From: Naegleria gruberi
Lineage: Eukaryota
NCBI GenBank assembly: GCA_000004985.1
Contig: GG738926.1
Direction: 5' to 3' (one strand)
DNA: 64,000 nucleotides
How positions within the stretch are numbered: position 1 is the first letter of the stretch; each line of letters begins with the position of its first letter. The position numbers and the translations under genes are program-made. A model generated the notes under the pieces. That model had not been told where the DNA came from. It saw only the letters and a list, made by a program, of their open reading frames with translations, and did no database searches. Below, piece by piece: positions 2,951 to 48,283 of this stretch.

Positions 2951-5900
2951 ATGAGATCTCACAACATCATTGGCTGTTTTTTATTTACCCTGCTATTTAT
3001 TATGATTTTTGGCAGCTGGGTTTCCAATGCCGCTGTATCAATAGATGTAAATTATAATATCTACCAATTAGTTGCCTCTTTCTACAATATCAGATCTATG
3101 GACTTTGACAAGCAAAATAATATCCTGTACATTGTCGGCGCTAATAACAAGGTTGTAAAATATACTGCTGCAAGTGGTACGACTGAATATGATGCATCAG
3201 CATATACTCCTTATGGCATTGCTGTCAATTCTACAAGTGCCTATTTTTCAGTATTTAATCCAGCTTCATTAAAAAAGTGGGACGGAGCTGTAGGAACCTC
3301 ATCTTATCATCTCATTATGCCAGGTTCAGTTTCTACATCAGGTTCAGATGATATAGTAGCAAATTCTTCATTGACGACGAAGCCGAAATATATGAGAATA
3401 TCATCAACCACAGGTGATTTATACTTTACGGAAGCATGCAGAGTGAGAAAAATATCAAATGGTATGGTTCGTGCTGTTGCAGGTAAAACTACTTGTACTT
3501 CCTCATCAGGAGATGGTGGTTCAGCCACAAATGCAGAATTTAATGGAGCTCCATATTATATTGCCTTAACACCAGAAGATGATTTACTTGTCATGGATAA
3601 TGTAAATAGACTGAGAAAAGTTAGCAATGGCACAATTACTACAATTCTATCACCTACCTCTTGTAGAGGTCTTGCTGTCGGTACTAATGGAGATATTTAC
3701 ATAATAGGTAAGTAATTGGATAAGAGCAAATTTCAATAATTATTATGTAGATGATCAAGTAGTTAGTAAGGTGAGGAATGGAGTTTCAACCACTATTGCT
3801 GGTGGTGGTGGAACTTCAACGAGCTCTTTTTCCTCAAATGATCCTCTATCATATGGTTTTGCTTATGCAGAACTCAGTGATATTGTCGTTGGTGTGAATA
3901 ATAGTCTTTATTTTGTTGCTGATCAGAAGTTATTCAAATTAGAACCTTATTGCAGTTCAGGTTATGTACTTTCACCTGATTATACTATTTGCTATCCTGT
4001 CTGCTTTAATACAGTAGCAACATCTCAATCAGTGTGCTCTAATTCAAATGGTACCTGTATTGCTCCTGATACATGTTCTTGCAAAGCTGGTTATACTGGT
4101 TCCAAATGTGAAATTCCAATCTGTTACGGATTACTCTCCAATGACACAGCCAATGCTTGCAGTGGAAGAGGATCTTGTGTAGCAAAGGACACTTGTGTCT
4201 GTCAACCAAATTATTCTGGACTTGCTTGTAATATCACTACCTGTTCTTCAATTTCTAGTACCAGTGCAAATGTTTGCTCTAGAAGAGGGTCATGCACTGC
4301 CTATAATACTTGTACTTGTTCGCAAAATTATTATTATGGAACAGATTGTCAAAATACTTACTGTTATTCAATTTCCTCTACTGATTCAAGTGTTTGTAGT
4401 GGACATGGTAACTGCTTAGATTATAATCAATGTTCTTGTTCTTCAAAATGGTATGGTTCCTATTGTAACATCACAGAATGCTTTTCTATGTTAAGTAACT
4501 CTTCAAATGTTTGTTCAGGTGCTGGTACTTGTAATTTGCCAAATAATTGTACTTGTAATGCTGGATATAATGGAACTAATTGTGAAAACTTTGATTGTTT
4601 CGGAGTGTCTGTGAATAGTGGCCAAAGTGCATGTCAACACAATGGAACATGCTCAGGACCTGGAGCTTGCTCTTGCTTGCCAACATACTATGGAAAAATT
4701 TGTGAAATATCAACTTGTTATGGTATATTGAGCAATTACTCTAGTGTTTGTTCAAGTCATGGAACCTGCACAATGTTGAATACTTGTGAATGCAGCCAAA
4801 ATTATTATGGAAATAATTGCAGCTTCCCTATTTGTTATGGAATAACATATGATGATACTAGTGTATGTTCTGCTCGCGGAAAATGTATTGGCGGAAATAA
4901 TTGTAAATGTAATAATGGTTATACTGGAGCTAATTGCGAGCTCAATATTTGTTATGGTGTTAACTCTGACCAATCTAATGTTTGCTCTTCACGTGGTTCA
5001 TGTGGTGCACCTGATTCATGTCAATGTACTAATGGATACAGAGGTCCAAATTGTCAATATGTTGAAATGATAATGGACGCCAAAGCGGCAGTTTTATCTA
5101 CAGCAGTCTCCAACGTAATAGCTTCCTATGCTCCTAAAACAGCAACATCTTGCAGTTCTATTTTCTCCTCAAAGGATTTGACATATCTTGGCTCCTCGGA
5201 AACTGTCAGATGTATTTGGAATCAAAACACATTCAAAATTTATTTAGGCTACAGACACTTTGTTTATGATAATATGACCATGGATATCTTTGGTAATGGC
5301 ATGAATTTCACTTTGCAAGTAGTCTTGACAAAGGCCATACAAGATAGTGCCAGTGCTTCTATTTCCATATTACCTCAACTATCTAAGGTACCAAAAACAG
5401 CAATTATTGTTAAATCTTACTCACCATTTGTTTTCCAAGCTTTTAGAAATACTTCAATTGCTTGGTCTAACTCAGGTAATACCGATATCTCTACATTGCT
5501 TTCAGGAATGAGCAACAAACCAGTGGTAGTCATTCCTTCTACAGAAATAACCTCAGCTTCAACCAAATTTTCCTTAAATGTAACAGGTAAAAACTGGATT
5601 GGTGCCACTTCAACTAGTGCAAAAGTTGATATTGATTATACTGCAGCCTATCCATACTTTGAATTAGTATCGGAGACAAGTGGTAGTCAATTTACTTGTT
5701 CTGGTTTTGACTGTATTATTGAAGTTAATCCGTATGTTACACCAACTCCTACAGTCTATTTTGATGTACCATTCAATGCTCTCAATAGTGGTTCTGGAGA
5801 TTATGTAATTAGATTTTTGAATAGAGTTGGCTCTACCATTCTAAACAGTTACTATGAGGGTTCAATGAAACTTCAAACAACCTCTAGTGCCTTAACCTAT

Positions 5901-18903: not shown

Positions 18904-20585
18904 TTGAAAATGCTCAATACAACACTTCATAAACAGAAAAAGAAGGTGAGCAAGAAATCTCAACCTAAAATTCACCAAATTACCATCTCTAAATATATCA
19001 ATGATAAATATGCTCTAAAATCTGTTGAATTGGGAACTGGTTCCTTTGGGGATGTTTATTTGGGAGAGGAAACAGATCCGATCACTAGAAAGAAGAGAGA
19101 TGTGGCTATTAAGAGAGTGAGATTGGAAAGATATGGTCCTGAACATTTCAAATATTTGGTGGCAGAAATTGAAATTATGGCTGGTTGTCAAAATGAGTTT
19201 GTCATGTCACTTGTTGATAAAATTGAAATTCCAAGAAAGGAACTCTATTTGGTAATGGACTTGTGTGAGGCAAATTTTAAATATTACATGAATAATGCAC
19301 GAAAGAGGAGGCAAGATAAGAGATTGCCTTTACTTTCAGAGAAGGAAATTCAATATTGGATAAAACAAATTAGTAGTGGATTGGGATATTTACATTTGGA
19401 AAAGAAGATTTGCCATCGTGATATTAAACCACATAATTTGCTACTCAAGAAAAAGGGTCACGAAGTTGCTTTTGATTTCTATGCCAAGATTGGAAATTAT
19501 GATGAATATACCATTCTGATTAGTGACTTTGGTCTTTCCAAAGTGTTGGATAGCAATCCAATTGCAGAGACAATTCTTGGAACTCAATGTTATAGATCTC
19601 CACAGCTGGCACTCTTCCAACCATACTCATTCGATGCAGATATATTTGCTTTGGGTGTGGTGCTGTTTGAAATGATTGCTGGTTACTGCTTGTTTGGTGC
19701 TCAAGTTACTAATCCAAAGCCAAAATATGGTGAAATTATTAGTACTTTAACAGAGAATATTGACTGGAGCTTTTTATCTGATGCACTTGATATTTCTCCA
19801 GAGCTGGTAGATCTTCTCTCTGGCATGTTACAATTTGAAGTGGAGAAACGTTTGAATATTGAACAAATTTTGCAACATCCCTTCCTTAATATGGATTTTT
19901 CAGAAAGTGAAGTTACTACTACCAGGTCATTCCATCTGAAACTATACCAACTGTATCATATATTGAAATTCCTCTTACTACCACTACTACAACTGACAAT
20001 GATTCTCCAAACAACTCAACTCAACAACAGCAACAAGTTCCTGTACAAATTATACTACCAACCAGCGAGGAAGAAAAAGAAAAAGAATTGCCAGTTAACG
20101 AACCAATCCAAGTAATACAGTTGGAACGTGATGAGCCAACTCCTACAACCTTTTCAGAATTTGTCTCCTTCTCCTATGAAAGAGTTGGACTGCCCCAAGA
20201 TTATACACGAGTAAGCATTATCAAGGATGAGATTGGTTGTGAACCTGCCCTTGTTAAAACTGAAAAAATTTCCAAGAGCAAACACTCCAAAGTTCTCATT
20301 CTTCTCAGCAGTGACAGCAACAAGGCAATTAATTATTCAATCAAGGTACTAGAGTCGCCAGTCAAACACACACAAACAGGAACAGTTTCTTCTACTGTGG
20401 AATATGAATTGGAGAATATTGAAATGGAAATGATTACTCTAGAGTTTGAATTTACTCATTCTCTCACCAACAGATGGCTTTCTTATTTCACAACTCCAGA
20501 ACAGATTCCATTCACTATTGAAATTTATGTTCAATCGAGAATTCCAGAACATACCTCAACTCTTTCTATTGAATCAATCAATTAA
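18904..20585 (+). CDS. Cytoplasmic Ser/Thr protein kinase with a T/S/Q-rich C-terminal tail; the reading frame switches near 19911-20066
   Basis: The kinase domain is in the frame of ORF 18904..20115 (GTGSFGDVYLG, AIKRV, HRDIKPHNLL, DFGLSK, SPQLA). After ..SESEVTTT that frame degenerates into low-complexity junk. A second frame stays open from 19911 to 20585 with a plausible tail (..IPSETIPTVSYIEIPLTTTTTT..QQQQQ..EEEKEKELPVNEPIQ..) and has no ATG of its own. I read it as one gene with either an unusual intron or an indel. Confidence 0.55.
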
Positions 20586-20907: not shown

Positions 20908-21720
20908 ATGTCACTACGGGACACTATGCGTGAATATAGAAAGGCCACTTTCACCATCTTTGCAGGAATTGGCCTCATTATCTTTGGATTCATCGTTGGA
21001 TTCGTCAGTATTGCCCTGGGAGTCCTCTTCCTCTACACTCCAAGTGATTATTCGTATTCGTCTTCCAAATCCGATTCTGAACTATTTAAATGGGCTGTGA
21101 GTGCTGGTGCATTTGGATTTTGTTGTATCATTGCTGGATATTCAATGATTGGAGGTGGATGCAGAATGTGTTTCTCAAGTTGTTCCGAATGTTGTTCGAA
21201 TGGATGTGGACGAATGGATTGTAGTGATTTTGAGTGTTGTGATTGTGGGTCATGTTGCTCAGATTATTGTTGGAGTTTGGGAGAAATGATGAAGAGTTGT
21301 TGTGGATGTTGTGTTGGAAAGGTAGCAGAGAATCAAGTTTCGTATAATATGGATTCGTATGAGGCGAGTCGTCAGGAACATACTATTGTGCATTTGGTGT
21401 ATGAAAATAATGAAACGAAGGAGGAAATTCCATTGGAAGTTCTTCAAATGCAACAACAACAATTATCAGTGCAACCAATTCATGCTGCAGATGTGAAAAT
21501 TCAAAATCCAAACGTTCCAGCTGAAGATTCTGATAATAATTATTCGAATGATCATCAATATGGTGGATTTAGTGGAGTTGTTGCACCACCTATTCAAGAA
21601 GAACCAACTGTTTCTTCTGCATTTGTGCAAGTTGGCATAGTTGACCAAGCAATGGTTGAATATCATAGATCTGAATCTAATAATGAAGTGATGGAAATCA
21701 ATGCTCCAACACAAGTTTAA
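20908..21720 (+). CDS. Cys-rich two-TM membrane protein, 270 aa
   Basis: The ORF starts at a real ATG. Two TM helices are predicted (IFAGIGLIIFGFIVGFVSIALGVLFLY; AFGFCCIIAGYSMIGGG). A dense CC/CxxC cluster follows (CRMCFSSCSECCSNGCGRMDCSDFECCDCGSCCSDYCW..SCCGCCVGK). Confidence 0.55.
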   Translation: MSLRDTMREYRKATFTIFAGIGLIIFGFIVGFVSIALGVLFLYTPSDYSYSSSKSDSELFKWAVSAGAFGFCCIIAGYSMIGGGCRMCFSSCSECCSNGCGRMDCSDFECCDCGSCCSDYCWSLGEMMKSCCGCCVGKVAENQVSYNMDSYEASRQEHTIVHLVYENNETKEEIPLEVLQMQQQQLSVQPIHAADVKIQNPNVPAEDSDNNYSNDHQYGGFSGVVAPPIQEEPTVSSAFVQVGIVDQAMVEYHRSESNNEVMEINAPTQV

Positions 21721-21755: not shown

Positions 21756-22718
21756 TTATTGATCTAGAATTGTAACTGAATCATTGGCATTAAACACATT
21801 GAGGTGAAGATAATAAGTGTTAGGAGGGAGGTTTTGCCATTCTTCATATTTGCCAGTATTCAAATTTGTAATTTTCAAAGTGTTTTTGCTGCAATCGAGG
21901 TCAACTTGGATAATATGTCCAACAGCCCAATCATTTGATGCAGTGGTTGAGGAGCTTGAACAGTCAGTAAATTTTTGATTTCTACTTGAAATACCAAAAT
22001 TATTTGGTTGCTCGAACGAGTTTTGATAATCAGTTAACGGCTTACTTGCTACACCAACCATAATCCAATGGGAAGTTGATGCAAAATGATTCATTCTGAG
22101 CTTCCAAGTTCGTTTTCCACTGGAAATACCATCACTACCAAGTGCACAAGTATTACCTGTTTGAGAAGCAGTTGCCGTCTTGTTATTATCAGACAAGTCA
22201 GTATAGGGTCCTTTAAGATTCATATCAAATGTATCAGCAATGCCATTTCGTTCCTGATCAGCCGATTCATCAGAAAACATTTCAGAGATCAAATAATAAT
22301 CTGCCTCCTCTCTCAACAAATCTCTTTTAGATTTATCGAGTGCTGATAAATCAACCTTTCCATATCTCATAAAATCCAAAACATAGTGAAATAGTTTAGG
22401 ATTTCTATCAATGAAATAGGATCCGTCCTCATCAGGCAACCATTTTCCACTCGAAATCATTGCATAAAAGAAGGTATCCTTCTTTGATAGCAATGTTTCC
22501 CTGCTCGTTTTAAAAATCTTTCCTCCGACATCCAATTTAATTGTGGATTTTGCCTTGTTGGCATTTTCTTCCATTAATTTTTCCTTCTCCGACCATTCTT
22601 GCTCCAATTTTAAAAGATGGGAAATTCGTTCCTCAATGGAAAGTTGTGCAGCGAGAAGTTGTTTGGCGCCTTGATCGAGTTGGTTTTTGAGAGATTCGTA
22701 TGACGAGTTGTTGGACAT
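21756..22718 (-). CDS. BTB/POZ (K+-channel-tetramerisation-type, KCTD-like) domain protein, 320 aa
   Basis: N-terminal coiled coil. The BTB_2 signature is KLDVGGKIFKTSRETL ... GSYFIDRNPKLFHYVLDFMRYGKVDL. The C-terminal half is unassigned. Confidence 0.75.
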   Translation of the reverse strand: MSNNSSYESLKNQLDQGAKQLLAAQLSIEERISHLLKLEQEWSEKEKLMEENANKAKSTIKLDVGGKIFKTSRETLLSKKDTFFYAMISSGKWLPDEDGSYFIDRNPKLFHYVLDFMRYGKVDLSALDKSKRDLLREEADYYLISEMFSDESADQERNGIADTFDMNLKGPYTDLSDNNKTATASQTGNTCALGSDGISSGKRTWKLRMNHFASTSHWIMVGVASKPLTDYQNSFEQPNNFGISSRNQKFTDCSSSSTTASNDWAVGHIIQVDLDCSKNTLKITNLNTGKYEEWQNLPPNTYYLHLNVFNANDSVTILDQ

Positions 22719-28769: not shown

Positions 28770-31700
28770 ATGAAACCAAACACCAATGTGGATCATTATC
28801 AAAAAAAGGACCACATCAAGTCAATCACAACAAGAATGAAGAAAGTTTGTTTATCCAAGTCAACTTCATCCTCTACCTCTGCCAAACTCAATTTTGCTAT
28901 TCAAAAGCATAAGAAGAATGGTAATTCATCTTCAATCTTTAACAGATCTACTCCAATTTCCTTCTCCAACACTGACTATATTCAACAATTATATCGTCAA
29001 TATGGAACCACAAGAATCTCCTTGAAGGAATTTGAAAAGTTGCTTGTGGCCAACAGAGGTGAAATTGCCACGAGAATTTTACGTTCTGCCCACGAAATTG
29101 GTTGCAGAACTGTTTCGATTTATGCAAAACAAGATGCTTCCTCTGTGCATCGTTACAAAGCAGATGGTAAGTTGTTTTATTTGAATATGTTATTATAATA
29201 ATTGATCGTATTTTGTAATAATATTTGATGAAATAATTGTAAAAATTCCGATCAATAGAAAGTTACTTGATCGGAAAGGACAAGGAATTAGGTCCAGTTG
29301 AAGCTTACTTGAGCATTGATGAGATTATTAAAATTGCCAAGGAGAATGGAGTTGATGCCATTCACCCTGGTTATGGATTTCTTTCAGAGAGAGCTGATTT
29401 TGCACGTGCTTGTTCTGAAAATGGTATTCAATTCATTGGTCCAGTAAGTATTTCATGTGATTGCAATAATATATTTAACAAATTGTTGGTAGACTGCTGA
29501 TGTTGTTGAATCTTTTGGTGACAAGACAAGAGCTAGAAAGGTTGCTACTGATATTGGAATTCCTGTTGTTCCTGGAACTCCAACTGTAAGTATTCTATAC
29601 TTCTTTAATCCTTAATCGATTGTAAATTATTCAAATAACTTATGTTCATTCCTATTTATAATGAACTTGTCCAATTGACCAAAATATTAAGGCAGTAACA
29701 AGTATTGCAGAAGCCAAAACCTTCTGCTCCCAAATTTCCTTCCCAGTCATTTTGAAAGCTGCCATGGGAGGTGGTGGAAGAGGTATGAGAGTTGTTTCCA
29801 AAATGGAAGATTTAGAAGAAGCATTCCAAAGAGCTTCCTCTGAAGCTTTGAATGCTTTTGGTTCTTCAGCAATTTTCATTGAAAAGTTTGTTGAAAAGCC
29901 ACGTCACATTGAGGTTCAAATCTTGGCCGATAAGTTTGGAAATGTTGTTCACTTGTACGAAAGAGATTGTTCAGTGCAAAGAAGACATCAAAAAGTTGTT
30001 GAAATTGCTCCAGCTCCACATTTGAATCCTCAAGTGAGAGAAAAGATTTTGGCTGATGCTGTTCGTCTTGCTCGCCACGTCAAGTATCAAAATGCAGGAA
30101 CATTTGAGTTTTTAGTCGATTCTAATGGAAAGGATTATTACTTTATTGAAGTCAATCCACGTCTTCAAGTCGAACACACTGTTACTGAAGAAATTACAGG
30201 TGTTGACATTGTCCGTTCTCAAATCTTAATTGCCGAAGGAAAGAGTTTGGACGAAATTGGTTTAAAACAAGAAAGCATTTCAGTCAGAGGTTCTGCCATT
30301 CAATGTAGAGTTACCACTGAAGATCCATTGAATGGATTCCAACCAGATACTGGTGTATTGGAAGCTTTCAGAACTGGTGAAGGTATGGGTATTCGTTTGG
30401 ATATTGGTTCTGGTTATGTTGGATCAAAGGTTTGTTTTTTTAACACTTTACAAAATATTTAATTCTTCTCGTTCTTTCACATCAATAGATTACACCATTC
30501 TATGATTCGCTCCTTGTCAAGGTCATTGGTAAAGGTCTCACTCATGAAGAAGCTTCCAACAAATTGAGACGTGCCTTGGCTGAATTCAGAATTCGTGGTG
30601 TCAAACACAATATTCCATTCTTGCAAAAGGTCTTATCTCATGAAAAGTTCTTAAATGGTTATGTTGACACCTCATTCATTGATACTAACCCAGAACTCTT
30701 CCAATTCTCATCCAGTGGTAACAGAGCTCAAAAGCTCTTATCATTCTTGGCTGAAAATGTTGTCAATGGACCAACTACATTACTCGTCACTGATTTGGAA
30801 CCATCCAAGAAGAATCCAACTGTTCCAAAGACACCTACTGGTGCTCCTCCACGTGGCTGGAAACAAGTTCTCGATGAACAAGGTCCTGAAGCATTTGCAA
30901 AGGCCATTCGTGATAGAAGTGAATTGCTCATTACTGACACAACCATGAGAGATGCTCACCAAAGTTTATTGGCAACTCGTGTCAGAACCAGAGATTTAAT
31001 GTCTATTGCTCCATATACTGCTCACGCCATGTCAGATTGTCTTTCATTGGAAATGGGAGGTGGTGCAACCTTTGATGTTTGTTTGAACTTTTTGAGAGAA
31101 TGTCCATTCGAAAGATTGGCTAAGTTGAGAGAAGCCATTCCTAACATTCCATTCCAAATGTTATTCAGAGGTGCAAATGCTGTTGGTTACACTGCTTATC
31201 CAGATAATGTTGTTTACAAATATTGTAAGAAAACAGTTGAACATGGTATGGACATTTTCAGAATCTTTGACTCATTGAACTATGTTCCAAATATGGAGTT
31301 GGGTATTGATGCTGTTGGTAGCGCTGGTGGCGTTATTGAAGCAGCCATTAGTTATACAGGAGATGTCAGTGATCCTAAAAAGTCCAAGTATAATTTGGAA
31401 TATTATTTGAAAGTTGCCAGATCACTTGTTGAAAAGGGAGTTCACATTTTGTGTATCAAAGACATGGCTGGTTTGTTGAGACCTAGTGCAGCAACCTTAT
31501 TGATTGGTGCTTTGAGAAAGGAATTCCCACACATTCCAATTCATCTTCACACTCACGATACTGCAGGAACTGGTGTTGCTACTTTATTGGCAGCTGCTGA
31601 AGCTGGTGCTGATATTGTTGACGCTGCTATTGATAGCATGTCAGGATTGACTAGTCAACCTAGTTTGGGAGCTATTGTTGCTTCATTGAAGAACACTCCA

Positions 31701-32845
31701 TTGGATACTAAATTGGATTTGGGTAAACTCTCCAAAGTTTCTGATTATTGGGAACAAGCCAGAGGATTGTATGCTCCATTCGAATGTACTACTACTTTGC
31801 GTTCTGGTTCTAGTGATGTTTATGTCCATGAAATTCCAGGAGGTCAATATACCAATTTGAATGCTCAAGTTTATTCCATCAATGGTTCACTTGGTAAGTT
31901 TAATTTTTTTACTTTCTAATAGCTAATTATTGTTTTTTTAAATATGAATATAATTTCAGATGGATTCCCTAAGGTTAAGGAATCATATGAAATTGCCAAT
32001 AGATTATTGGGAGATATCATCAAGGTCACACCAAGTAGTAAGGTTGTCGGTGATTTGGCTCAATTCATGGTTCAAAACAACTTGGCTGAAAAGGATGTTA
32101 TTGAAAAGGCCGATCAATTGTCATTCCCTAACTCTGTTCTCGAATATTTTGAAGTAAATTGGGTATTCCATATGGTGGTTTCCCAGAACCTTTGAGAACC
32201 AAGGTTATGAGAGGAAAACCATCCATTGAAGGAAGACCAGGTGCTAGCATGCCAGATTTTGACTTTGTCAAGTTGAAGGACAAGTTGAAGAAGGATTTGG
32301 ATTATGATGCCTCTGAAGAAGATTTGATTTCTTCATCTCTCTTCCCAAAGGTATTTGAGGAATATGTTCAATTCAAACAACAATATGGTGAGGTCACTAA
32401 TTTGGGAACTCGTCAATACTTTAAGGGAATTAAAGTTGGTGAAGAAACTGAAGTTGAATTAGAAAAGGGTAAAGTCTTACATATCAAATTGAAGGCCATT
32501 GGAGAAGTTGGAAGTGATGGTAAGAGAGAAGTTTTCTTTGAAGTAAATGGTCAATCACGTCTTGTTTTGGTTCAAGATAAGAAACTCTCCAAGACTATTC
32601 AAATCAGATCAAAGGCCAATAAGAAGGATCCAAATGAAATTGGAGCACCAATGCCAGGTAAAGTTATTGACATTAAAGTCAAGGAAGGTGATAAGGTCAA
32701 GAAGGGAGATACTTTATTGGTCCAAAGTGCCATGAAGATGGAAACTCAAGTCAAGTGTAACTTTGATGGTATTATCAAATCACTTGGTGTTAAGGTTGGT
32801 GATGAAGTTCAAGGTGGAGATTTGTTATGTATTGTTTCTCAATAA
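28770..32845 (+). CDS. Pyruvate carboxylase (biotin carboxylase + carboxyltransferase + biotinyl domains), 7 coding segments
   Basis: Exons are 28770..29166, 29259..29443, 29493..29585, 29692..30429, 30489..31893 and 31960..about 32153, then a frame-shifted continuation of about 32155..32845. The introns all start GTAAGT, or GTTTGT at 30430. It opens with an N-terminal mitochondrial-type presequence. The motifs are [89 protein letters not shown] and AMKMET (biotin attachment). There is a 1-nt frame discontinuity at 32151..32161 (see findings). Confidence 0.85.
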
Positions 32846-46692: not shown

Positions 46693-48283
46693 TTAAGGTA
46701 CAGTTACATTCGATGACTTCTTTCTCTGGTATTCTTCATACCAATTTCTGTTGAGCTTCAAGTTTTCTTCGACAGCTCTCATGTATTGGAAGTGATCGTT
46801 AATCTTGGTTGTATCTATTGATTTGGTTCCATTCTCTGTCTTGAGAGCTAGCAAAGTTTCAAAACCGTTTTGTAATTGTTTGCTTCTCTTCTTCCAAATT
46901 CTATTCAGTACAATATCAGAATCCATGATAACGTGAAGATCTGTATAAACAGTGTGGATGAATCTTGTTGAACGATCACCCATTCTATAGAACATGTAAT
47001 TAAAAAGAATTTCAGCATCAACACGATCCTTTCTTGCAGGTCTGAGTGTTTCTTCAATATCACAAGTATGTCCAATATTCATGTAACAATTAATGGAAGG
47101 ATCGTAAACAGAAGTCATGGTATGAGGCAAATCTCTATTCTTTAAAAGTGGAATGTGCATATCAATACCAAGAGCTCCAATTTGAAGAGCAAGTGGTGGA
47201 TTGTCAACTGTATAATTCTCATCTCTATCTATTACATCTCTCATCGAGGAAGTTGTAATGTTTCTCTTCTCAATTGCTTCTGGAGATGGTGGAATATATC
47301 TGAGTAATTTAAAGTCCTTCATCAAGGTTTCATCAAGTGTAAATCTTGTATCCATATCACAATAGGTAGCCCAAACATCTTCAACTGCGTAAGGCAAATG
47401 CATTACAAGTTTGAACAGTTTCATACCCTTCATTCTATCCTGACCTATCACATAGGATGTCTTGGAGACAAAGGTTTGAAGCATGTTTGGTTTTTCACTA
47501 TAGGTCAATTCTTTCCAATCAGGTGTGTCTTCAGCAAGAGTATAGGCAAAGAAAACGTCCTTCTCAGTCATGAGTTGTGACTTGAAATCGTTTGGTTTAA
47601 ATCTTACATCAACACTGTAACCATTAGAAACGTTCAAAGCAATTGAACGAGTAAATTCTTCTCCCTTCTTCCACAAGAAGCTAATCAACAAGTGAGATCT
47701 AGCATATCTAGGAAATTGATCATACTATTATTATTATTATTGGTTAATATCTCTATAACAATTATTCTAAACTTACCTTCAGATCAAGAACTACATGTGA
47801 GACAATTCTATCAAAAAGTTCGAAAGGATCCAACAATGAAATCAATCCCAGAGGTTTCATATCATTCTGACTTATCAGTGTAGTAAGTCTATCGAAGATA
47901 TCCAATGTTGGTTGATAGGTTGGCTTGCTGAGATTCAATTCCTTTGGTTTTCCTCCACCAATATATGTATCAATAATATTCTTCAAAGCATCAACGACAA
48001 CACTCATCAATTTAATGCACTGTGTATCGAATTCCTTGTTTTGCAACTCTCCAGTCTCTGATCCTGGAGAAATACATGTATTGGTGTATTGAGTAATTTG
48101 CTCCTTTGTCTTTTTATATAAAGTTCTATAGGCATCGACATCATTCAGGAAGAGAATTGGTTCTTCATTGTGTGCTTGTTTTAAAAATTCATGAAAGTTA
48201 TCCCTAGCTTCAGAAACTTTCATCAACTCTTCATAGACAACCATATAATTGTCAGTATTAAACTTGTTAGCCTTCCTAGACAT
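46693..48283 (-). CDS. RGS-domain protein with a large C-terminal domain of unknown function, 2 exons (about 513 aa)
   Basis: Exon 1 is 47777..48283 with its ATG at 48281-48283. The intron is 47725..47776, GTAAGT...TAG on the minus strand. Exon 2 is 46693..47724. The splice joins ..HVVLDLK to YDQFPRYARSHLLISFLWKK.. in frame. Exon 1 has RGS-fold signatures (FHEFLKQAHNEEPILFLNDVDAYR ... IFDRLTTLISQNDMKPLGLISLLDPFELFDRI). Confidence 0.6.

Follow-up and report, generated by a model that had tools for sequence, protein, structure and literature searches.

A frame-switching kinase gene in Naegleria gruberi is very probably a single exon lacking one base

The window analyzed here is a stretch of 64,000 nucleotides from N. 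gruberi that is AT-rich (G+C content of 32% to 39%) and densely packed with genes, one of which raises the question of how a protein kinase can be continued in a different reading frame with no recognizable intron between the 2 parts. The kinase ORF was found at 18904..20115 as given in a preliminary description of the locus, with an ATG at 18910. Its product is predicted to be a protein kinase, with a match to the Pfam profile PF00069 (Pkinase) over residues 39 to 326 (E = 7.6e-50; score of 170 bits, cut-off at 31.7 bits) that covers positions 5 to 263 of the 263 in the profile, and with all of the catalytic residues in place. These are the Lys of the VAIK motif (K68), the Glu of helix αC (E86), the HRD motif (residues 169 to 171), N176 and the DFG motif (residues 206 to 208), which were invariant across the aligned relatives. 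The translation degenerates 13 residues past the end of the domain, at ...NMDFSESEVTTT, and the low-complexity junk that had been described downstream of ...SESEVTTT was indeed recovered, as RSFHLKLYQLYHILKFLLLPLLQL...KKKKKNCQLTNQSK followed by the stop codon (the end is also given as ARKKKKKNCQLTNQSK and stop). The coordinates of this and the other features of the locus are listed in Table 1.

Table 1. Features of the kinase locus, with positions counted from the first nucleotide of the window.
Feature	Position	Strand	Remarks
Kinase coding sequence as far as the missing base	18910..19922	+	Pkinase domain at nt 19024..19887; last in-frame residues ...SESEVTT(T)
86-nt "intron" in the public annotation	19840..19925	+	GTGGAG...ACTACCAG; open in the kinase frame, where it encodes VEKRLNIEQILQHPFLNMDFSESEVTT
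Single missing T	19922..19923	+	ACTACTAC followed by CAGG in the window, ACTACTACTCAGG in the intact relative; inside an (ACT)3 run
Probable remainder of the gene, read in the shifted frame	19923..20585	+	Linker at about 19923..20200, C-terminal domain at about 20202..20534, TAA at 20583-20585
Out-of-frame read-through of the kinase frame	19924..20115	+	63 junk codons (RSFHLKLYQLYHILKF...), TAA at 20113-20115
Candidate intron of the preliminary description, rejected	19926..20065	+	140 nt, GTCATT...CCAACCAG

A second frame, one base behind that of the kinase, is closed by a TGA at 19908-19910 and then stays open for 224 codons, from 19911 to the TAA that ends the gene in Table 1. This agrees with the earlier report of an open frame at 19911..20585 that lacks an ATG of its own, and no ATG was found in it before position 20424. 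When the local 4 kb were shuffled 500 times, the longest open frame ran to 82 codons on average and to 140 codons at most, so that the tail frame is not open by chance. The peptides encoded in it include VLILLSSDSNK and IPEHTSTLSIESIN, and the nonsense tail of the kinase frame includes SFHLK...

A search with the kinase ORF identified a 558-amino acid protein, P0001, with 99% identity across the first 85% of the query, as well as orthologs in Naegleria lovaniensis (611 amino acids) and Naegleria fowleri (621 amino acids) with 40% to 41% identity across the kinase. P0001 is encoded by a continuous ORF that comprises both the kinase and the tail and reads ...SESEVTTTQVIPSET..., and P0001 and another protein, P0095, both read ...SESEVTTTQVIPSETIPTVSYIEIPLTTTTTT... 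uninterrupted across the junction. The kinase, the linker and the C-terminal domain are likewise all in one frame in the orthologs from N. fowleri (FDP41_011855) and N. lovaniensis (C9374_000904), which have the architecture of the window gene, a kinase followed by an unconserved acidic or polar linker and a C-terminal domain, and share with it a C-terminal domain that ends with ...PF.I.(V/I)(Y/F)VQ. They differ from the window gene in that their N-termini are longer, their kinase domains contain inserts and their reading frames are uninterrupted, whereas the window gene has a 1-nt gap.

The source contigs of P0001 and P0095 are L001 (3,785 nt, from an ENA assembly) and L002 (from a Logan assembly), both of which were obtained from run ERR1078381 of project PRJEB11402, and the intact ORF thus represents one independent environmental sample, from an organism that is about 2% to 3% diverged in DNA from the N. 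gruberi strain NEG-M. The DNA is about 97% to 98% identical to that of the window, with a value of 97.3% for L001 over the 3.8 kb that are shared. In the alignment, the window reads GTTACTACTAC-CAGGTC and L001 reads GTTACTACTACTCAGGTC, so that exactly one T is absent between positions 19922 and 19923. There are 11 indels relative to L001 over the shared 3.8 kb, of which 10 are intergenic and the missing T is the only one located within the 3 coding regions. With a T inserted at this site, the window encodes a protein of 558 amino acids, with 5 residue differences relative to P0095 and 7 relative to P0001. A 1-nt gap relative to near-identical sequence, the closing of which restores a full-length conserved ORF, has the signature of a putative single-base indel, and the alternative offered in the preliminary description, a 1-nt indel near 19911-19930, is thereby confirmed. 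Since the relatives carry the kinase and the tail in one frame and a near-identical contig contains the extra T, we conclude with high confidence that the window holds a single-exon gene from which one T is missing, with neither an intron nor recoding involved.

The 2 contigs from the environmental sample differed from each other at the positions equivalent to 19307, 19309 and 20498 of the window, with KKW against KRR at residues 132 to 134 and one synonymous site. These slight differences between the alleles of the kinase gene suggest that an amoeba resembling N. gruberi was present in the sample as 2 haplotypes or strains, and the extra T was present in both.

According to the preliminary description, the tail was plausibly coding and belonged to the kinase gene, a proposal that is borne out by its homology to the C-termini of the orthologous Naegleria kinases. 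The linker is rich in T, S, P, Q and E and shows no conservation, and the C-terminal domain is conserved in the orthologs. The last 90 amino acids of the tail could be aligned to the very ends of the orthologs from N. lovaniensis and N. fowleri, at their C-termini (pairwise E = 3e-8 and 4e-8), and residues 340 to 558 of P0001 were 99% identical to the tail. In a structure model of the full-length protein the kinase had a mean pLDDT of only 48, and a PDB search with this model returned kinases only. Because the model was poor over the kinase, the tail was modeled separately together with 3 relatives, whereby the segment at 20202..20534 was predicted to form a β-sandwich of 8 to 9 strands, with pLDDT values of 78 to 91 over most of the domain and of 65 in one block of 10 residues. 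The approximately 95 residues that precede it were predicted to be disordered. The predicted sandwich may have its closest counterpart in GOLD domains.

An exhaustive HMMER search with the tail against 1.84 billion representatives matched P0001 only (3.8e-128) and provided no functional lead. As P0001 was the sole match in this search, the C-terminal domain is, as judged by sequence, restricted to Naegleria, and would be a lineage-specific accessory domain of the kinase. A word-index protein search with the tail missed even P0001, despite the 99% identity over residues 340 to 558, and its negative results are uninformative for a low-complexity orphan tail of this type.

These data also bear on the reading that the kinase truly ends at 20115 and that the downstream frame is an unrelated gene or not coding at all. 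In favor of this reading, a product of 401 amino acids would hold a complete kinase domain, but the 224 open codons exceed the shuffle maximum of 140, the tail frame contains no ATG before 20424, the tail is homologous to the C-termini of orthologous kinases in 2 other Naegleria species, and it is confidently predicted to adopt a β-sandwich fold. We therefore regard 2 separate genes, or a non-coding tail, as scarcely credible.

The 90%-identity cluster of P0001 includes a protein of 529 amino acids from N. gruberi, annotated as "predicted protein" (XP_002669467.1, locus tag NAEGRDRAFT_82146). The translation of 18910..19839 joined to 19926..20582 of the window is exactly that of XP_002669467.1, and the public entry (also EFC36723.1 and UniProt D2W2J1) is consequently the same locus as the window gene, residue for residue over the joined exons. 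The window is therefore identical to the reference sequence of N. gruberi NEG-M. The public model lacks 29 residues, VEKRLNIEQILQHPFLNMDFSESEVTTTQ, that are found in the intact 558-amino acid form. We take this stretch to be kinase subdomain XI, including its conserved Arg. The excised residues aligned with DKDKRISIGGIATHPF... in N. lovaniensis and N. fowleri and with DAKKRLSIEQVADHDF... in another relative, P0002, over the motif KR.sI..i..HPF that is conserved in these 3 relatives and reads ...DKRISIG.IA.HPF... in the orthologs.

If the 86-nt intron were real, NEG-M would splice it to produce the 529-amino acid protein. It is an in-phase GT-AG pair with a length typical of the genome, its removal reproduces the public model exactly, and genuine donors in the window do vary beyond GTAAGT, as exemplified by GTTTGT at 30430. 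However, the supposed intron has no stop in the kinase frame and codes for the subdomain XI motif (EKR...HPF), which is also found in the orthologs from N. fowleri and N. lovaniensis, in P0002 and in the near-identical P0001 and P0095, and the Pfam match to the kinase reaches residue 326, within the segment to be removed. Furthermore, its donor, GTGGAG, has an A rather than a G at +5, and no intron is required in the relative that has the extra T, where removal of the equivalent 87 nt would be in frame, from which it follows that the 86-nt intron model exists solely to absorb the frameshift. The intron at 19840..19925 is almost certainly spurious, and we consider it highly unlikely that NEG-M splices it. 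Slighter still is the chance that NEG-M truly lacks the T and yet arrives at a protein of nearly full length through splicing of this segment, which would imply a very recent "intronization" that compensates for the frameshift with a poor GTGGAG donor and at the cost of subdomain XI.

Another intron had initially been considered for the frame change, and the length of 140 nt, the GTCATT start and the CCAACCAG end reported for it were reproduced. It had been put forward as the only in-phase splice that could be built, which was incorrect, as 233 GT..AG pairs give a stop-free frame, one of which is the pair used in the public annotation. A search for GTAAGT or GTATGT donors among these 233 frame-restoring pairs found none. 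The 140-nt candidate was rejected because P0001 and P0095 translate the stretch in frame as VIPSETIPTVSYIEIPLTTTTTTDNDSPNNS.QQQQQVPVQIILPT and because its donor has no G at +5.

For comparison, we considered as credible those introns in the window where an open frame ends no more than a few codons from the donor and is picked up again in a different frame. They are mostly 41 to 92 nt long, with a few longer ones, contain in-frame stops and end with TAG or CAG. Their donors read GTAAGT, for example at 3708, 8722, 29167 and 31894 and, on the minus strand, at 47776, 52135 and 53399, or else GTATGT (38353) or GTTTGT (30430). The GTTTGT donor belongs to a 59-nt intron at 30430..30488 on the plus strand with a CAATAG acceptor, which joins the open frames 29665-30459 and 30489-31916 of a gene that may encode a pyruvate carboxylase, judging from the look of a motif; donors thus vary from GTAAGT yet keep the G at +5 and the T at +6.

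Neither GTGGAG nor GTCATT combines a G at +5 with a T at +6, and neither of the 2 candidate introns looks non-coding, since both are open and are translated in frame in P0001 and P0095, and the 86-nt stretch corresponds to the conserved subdomain XI; as far as can be judged from sequence, both would be coding. A 140-nt intron that links the 2 frames is in phase and its removal leaves a frame free of stops, but the same holds for each of the 233 equally possible GT..AG pairs of which it is one, and it is situated in the linker, which is in frame in P0001 and P0095. There are also 4 substitution events relative to L001 in the 140-nt stretch, of which 2 (20015 and 20066) are silent when read in the tail frame and one is an adjacent pair (20020-20021). 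We give this intron virtually no chance of being real. More generally, a change of frame through an atypical intron was not borne out, as a near-identical sequence reads through with an extra T and the orthologs are co-linear.

Recoding could in principle allow the unaltered sequence to give rise to a full-length protein, either through programmed ribosomal frameshifting, with a shift of -1 or +2, or through transcriptional slippage. The shift needed is -1, the 2 frames overlap by about 200 nt, and there are 2 weak A_AAG single-tRNA slip sites, at 20076 and 20082. Against this, the closest relative and the orthologs are plainly in frame and so share no conserved recoding signal, and the site offers no homopolymer on which a polymerase could slip. 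A search for canonical X_XXY_YYZ slippery heptamers in the zero frame of the overlap (19909-20115) found none. With neither a heptamer nor a requirement for frameshifting that is conserved in relatives, the locus does not resemble a programmed -1 frameshift site, and recoding appears improbable in the extreme.

The locus is thus best read, with high confidence, as a single-exon gene with one base missing. The gene most probably encodes a cytoplasmic Ser/Thr-type kinase of 558 amino acids, with a disordered linker of about 95 amino acids and a small Naegleria-specific C-terminal β-sandwich domain. The absence of a T in the NEG-M reference assembly displaces everything downstream by one base, and the annotation pipeline almost certainly mended the frame by inventing the 86-nt GT-AG intron, which leaves the public protein without the last conserved segment of the kinase domain.

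As for the origin of the gap, we see an even chance that the T was lost through an error in the consensus or in base calling when the Sanger draft was assembled. It is well documented that single-base errors in draft assemblies can throw gene models off, as for rhesus ACTRT1 (PMC3426473). In both cases, the coding region is a single exon with a one-base indel, which was exposed by an intact close relative and which led to a wrong automated product. Unlike in rhesus ACTRT1, the shift in the window gene, a putative error, is masked by an invented intron rather than called as a pseudogene.

The missing T could also, quite plausibly, be a genuine frameshift allele of the NEG-M strain or of one haplotype. 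Naegleria genomes have been described as heterozygous diploids (PMC9928731), and one haplotype could therefore carry the frameshift. Such an allele would encode a product of 401 amino acids with a complete kinase domain, a nonsense tail of 63 residues and no C-terminal domain. Because neither frame shows any further damage, the frameshift event, if real, would be very recent. All other origins of the gap together seem unlikely.

Exact products of 401, 403 and 529 amino acids were looked up in public assemblies and none were on record. Two scans of JGI metagenomes, which targeted the junction in both versions, extra base present or absent, as well as P0001 relatives, gave no match. A literature search on the locus tag and accessions, on project PRJEB11402 and on re-sequenced or re-annotated N. 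gruberi returned nothing specific.

The contig L001 also covers 2 neighboring ORFs. The ORF at 20908..21720 on the plus strand encodes 270 amino acids, among them a hydrophobic segment at the N-terminus and a stretch that is extremely rich in Cys (CCSNGCGRMDCSDFECCDCGSCCSDYCWS...CCGCC); this ORF is conserved beside the kinase gene in L001, and no Pfam match is on record there. The part of the minus-strand ORF at 21756..22718 that is covered by L001 (21756..22286) contained 23 substitutions in about 530 nt, clustered near the 3' end of the ORF, as compared to 11 in 1,676 nt for the kinase gene and 9 in 813 nt for the ORF at 20908..21720. It is thus markedly more divergent from L001 than either of the other 2.

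The frame switch is hereby explained without unusual splicing or recoding, and the explanation carries little biological novelty. Its practical value is that of a correction to a gene model, as XP_002669467.1 (D2W2J1) was built around an intron that is almost certainly invented, so that the kinase domain is cut short at its end. In all likelihood, the gene truly encodes a kinase of 558 amino acids with a Naegleria-restricted C-terminal domain that is predicted to be a β-sandwich. Pending a check of the reads, we suggest that NAEGRDRAFT_82146 be replaced by a single exon at 18910..20585 with the T restored, which encodes these 558 amino acids. Short GT-AG "introns" produced by annotation pipelines can conceal single-base errors or mutant alleles, and in intron-poor protist genomes such invented introns inflate both the intron counts and the statistics on non-canonical donors.
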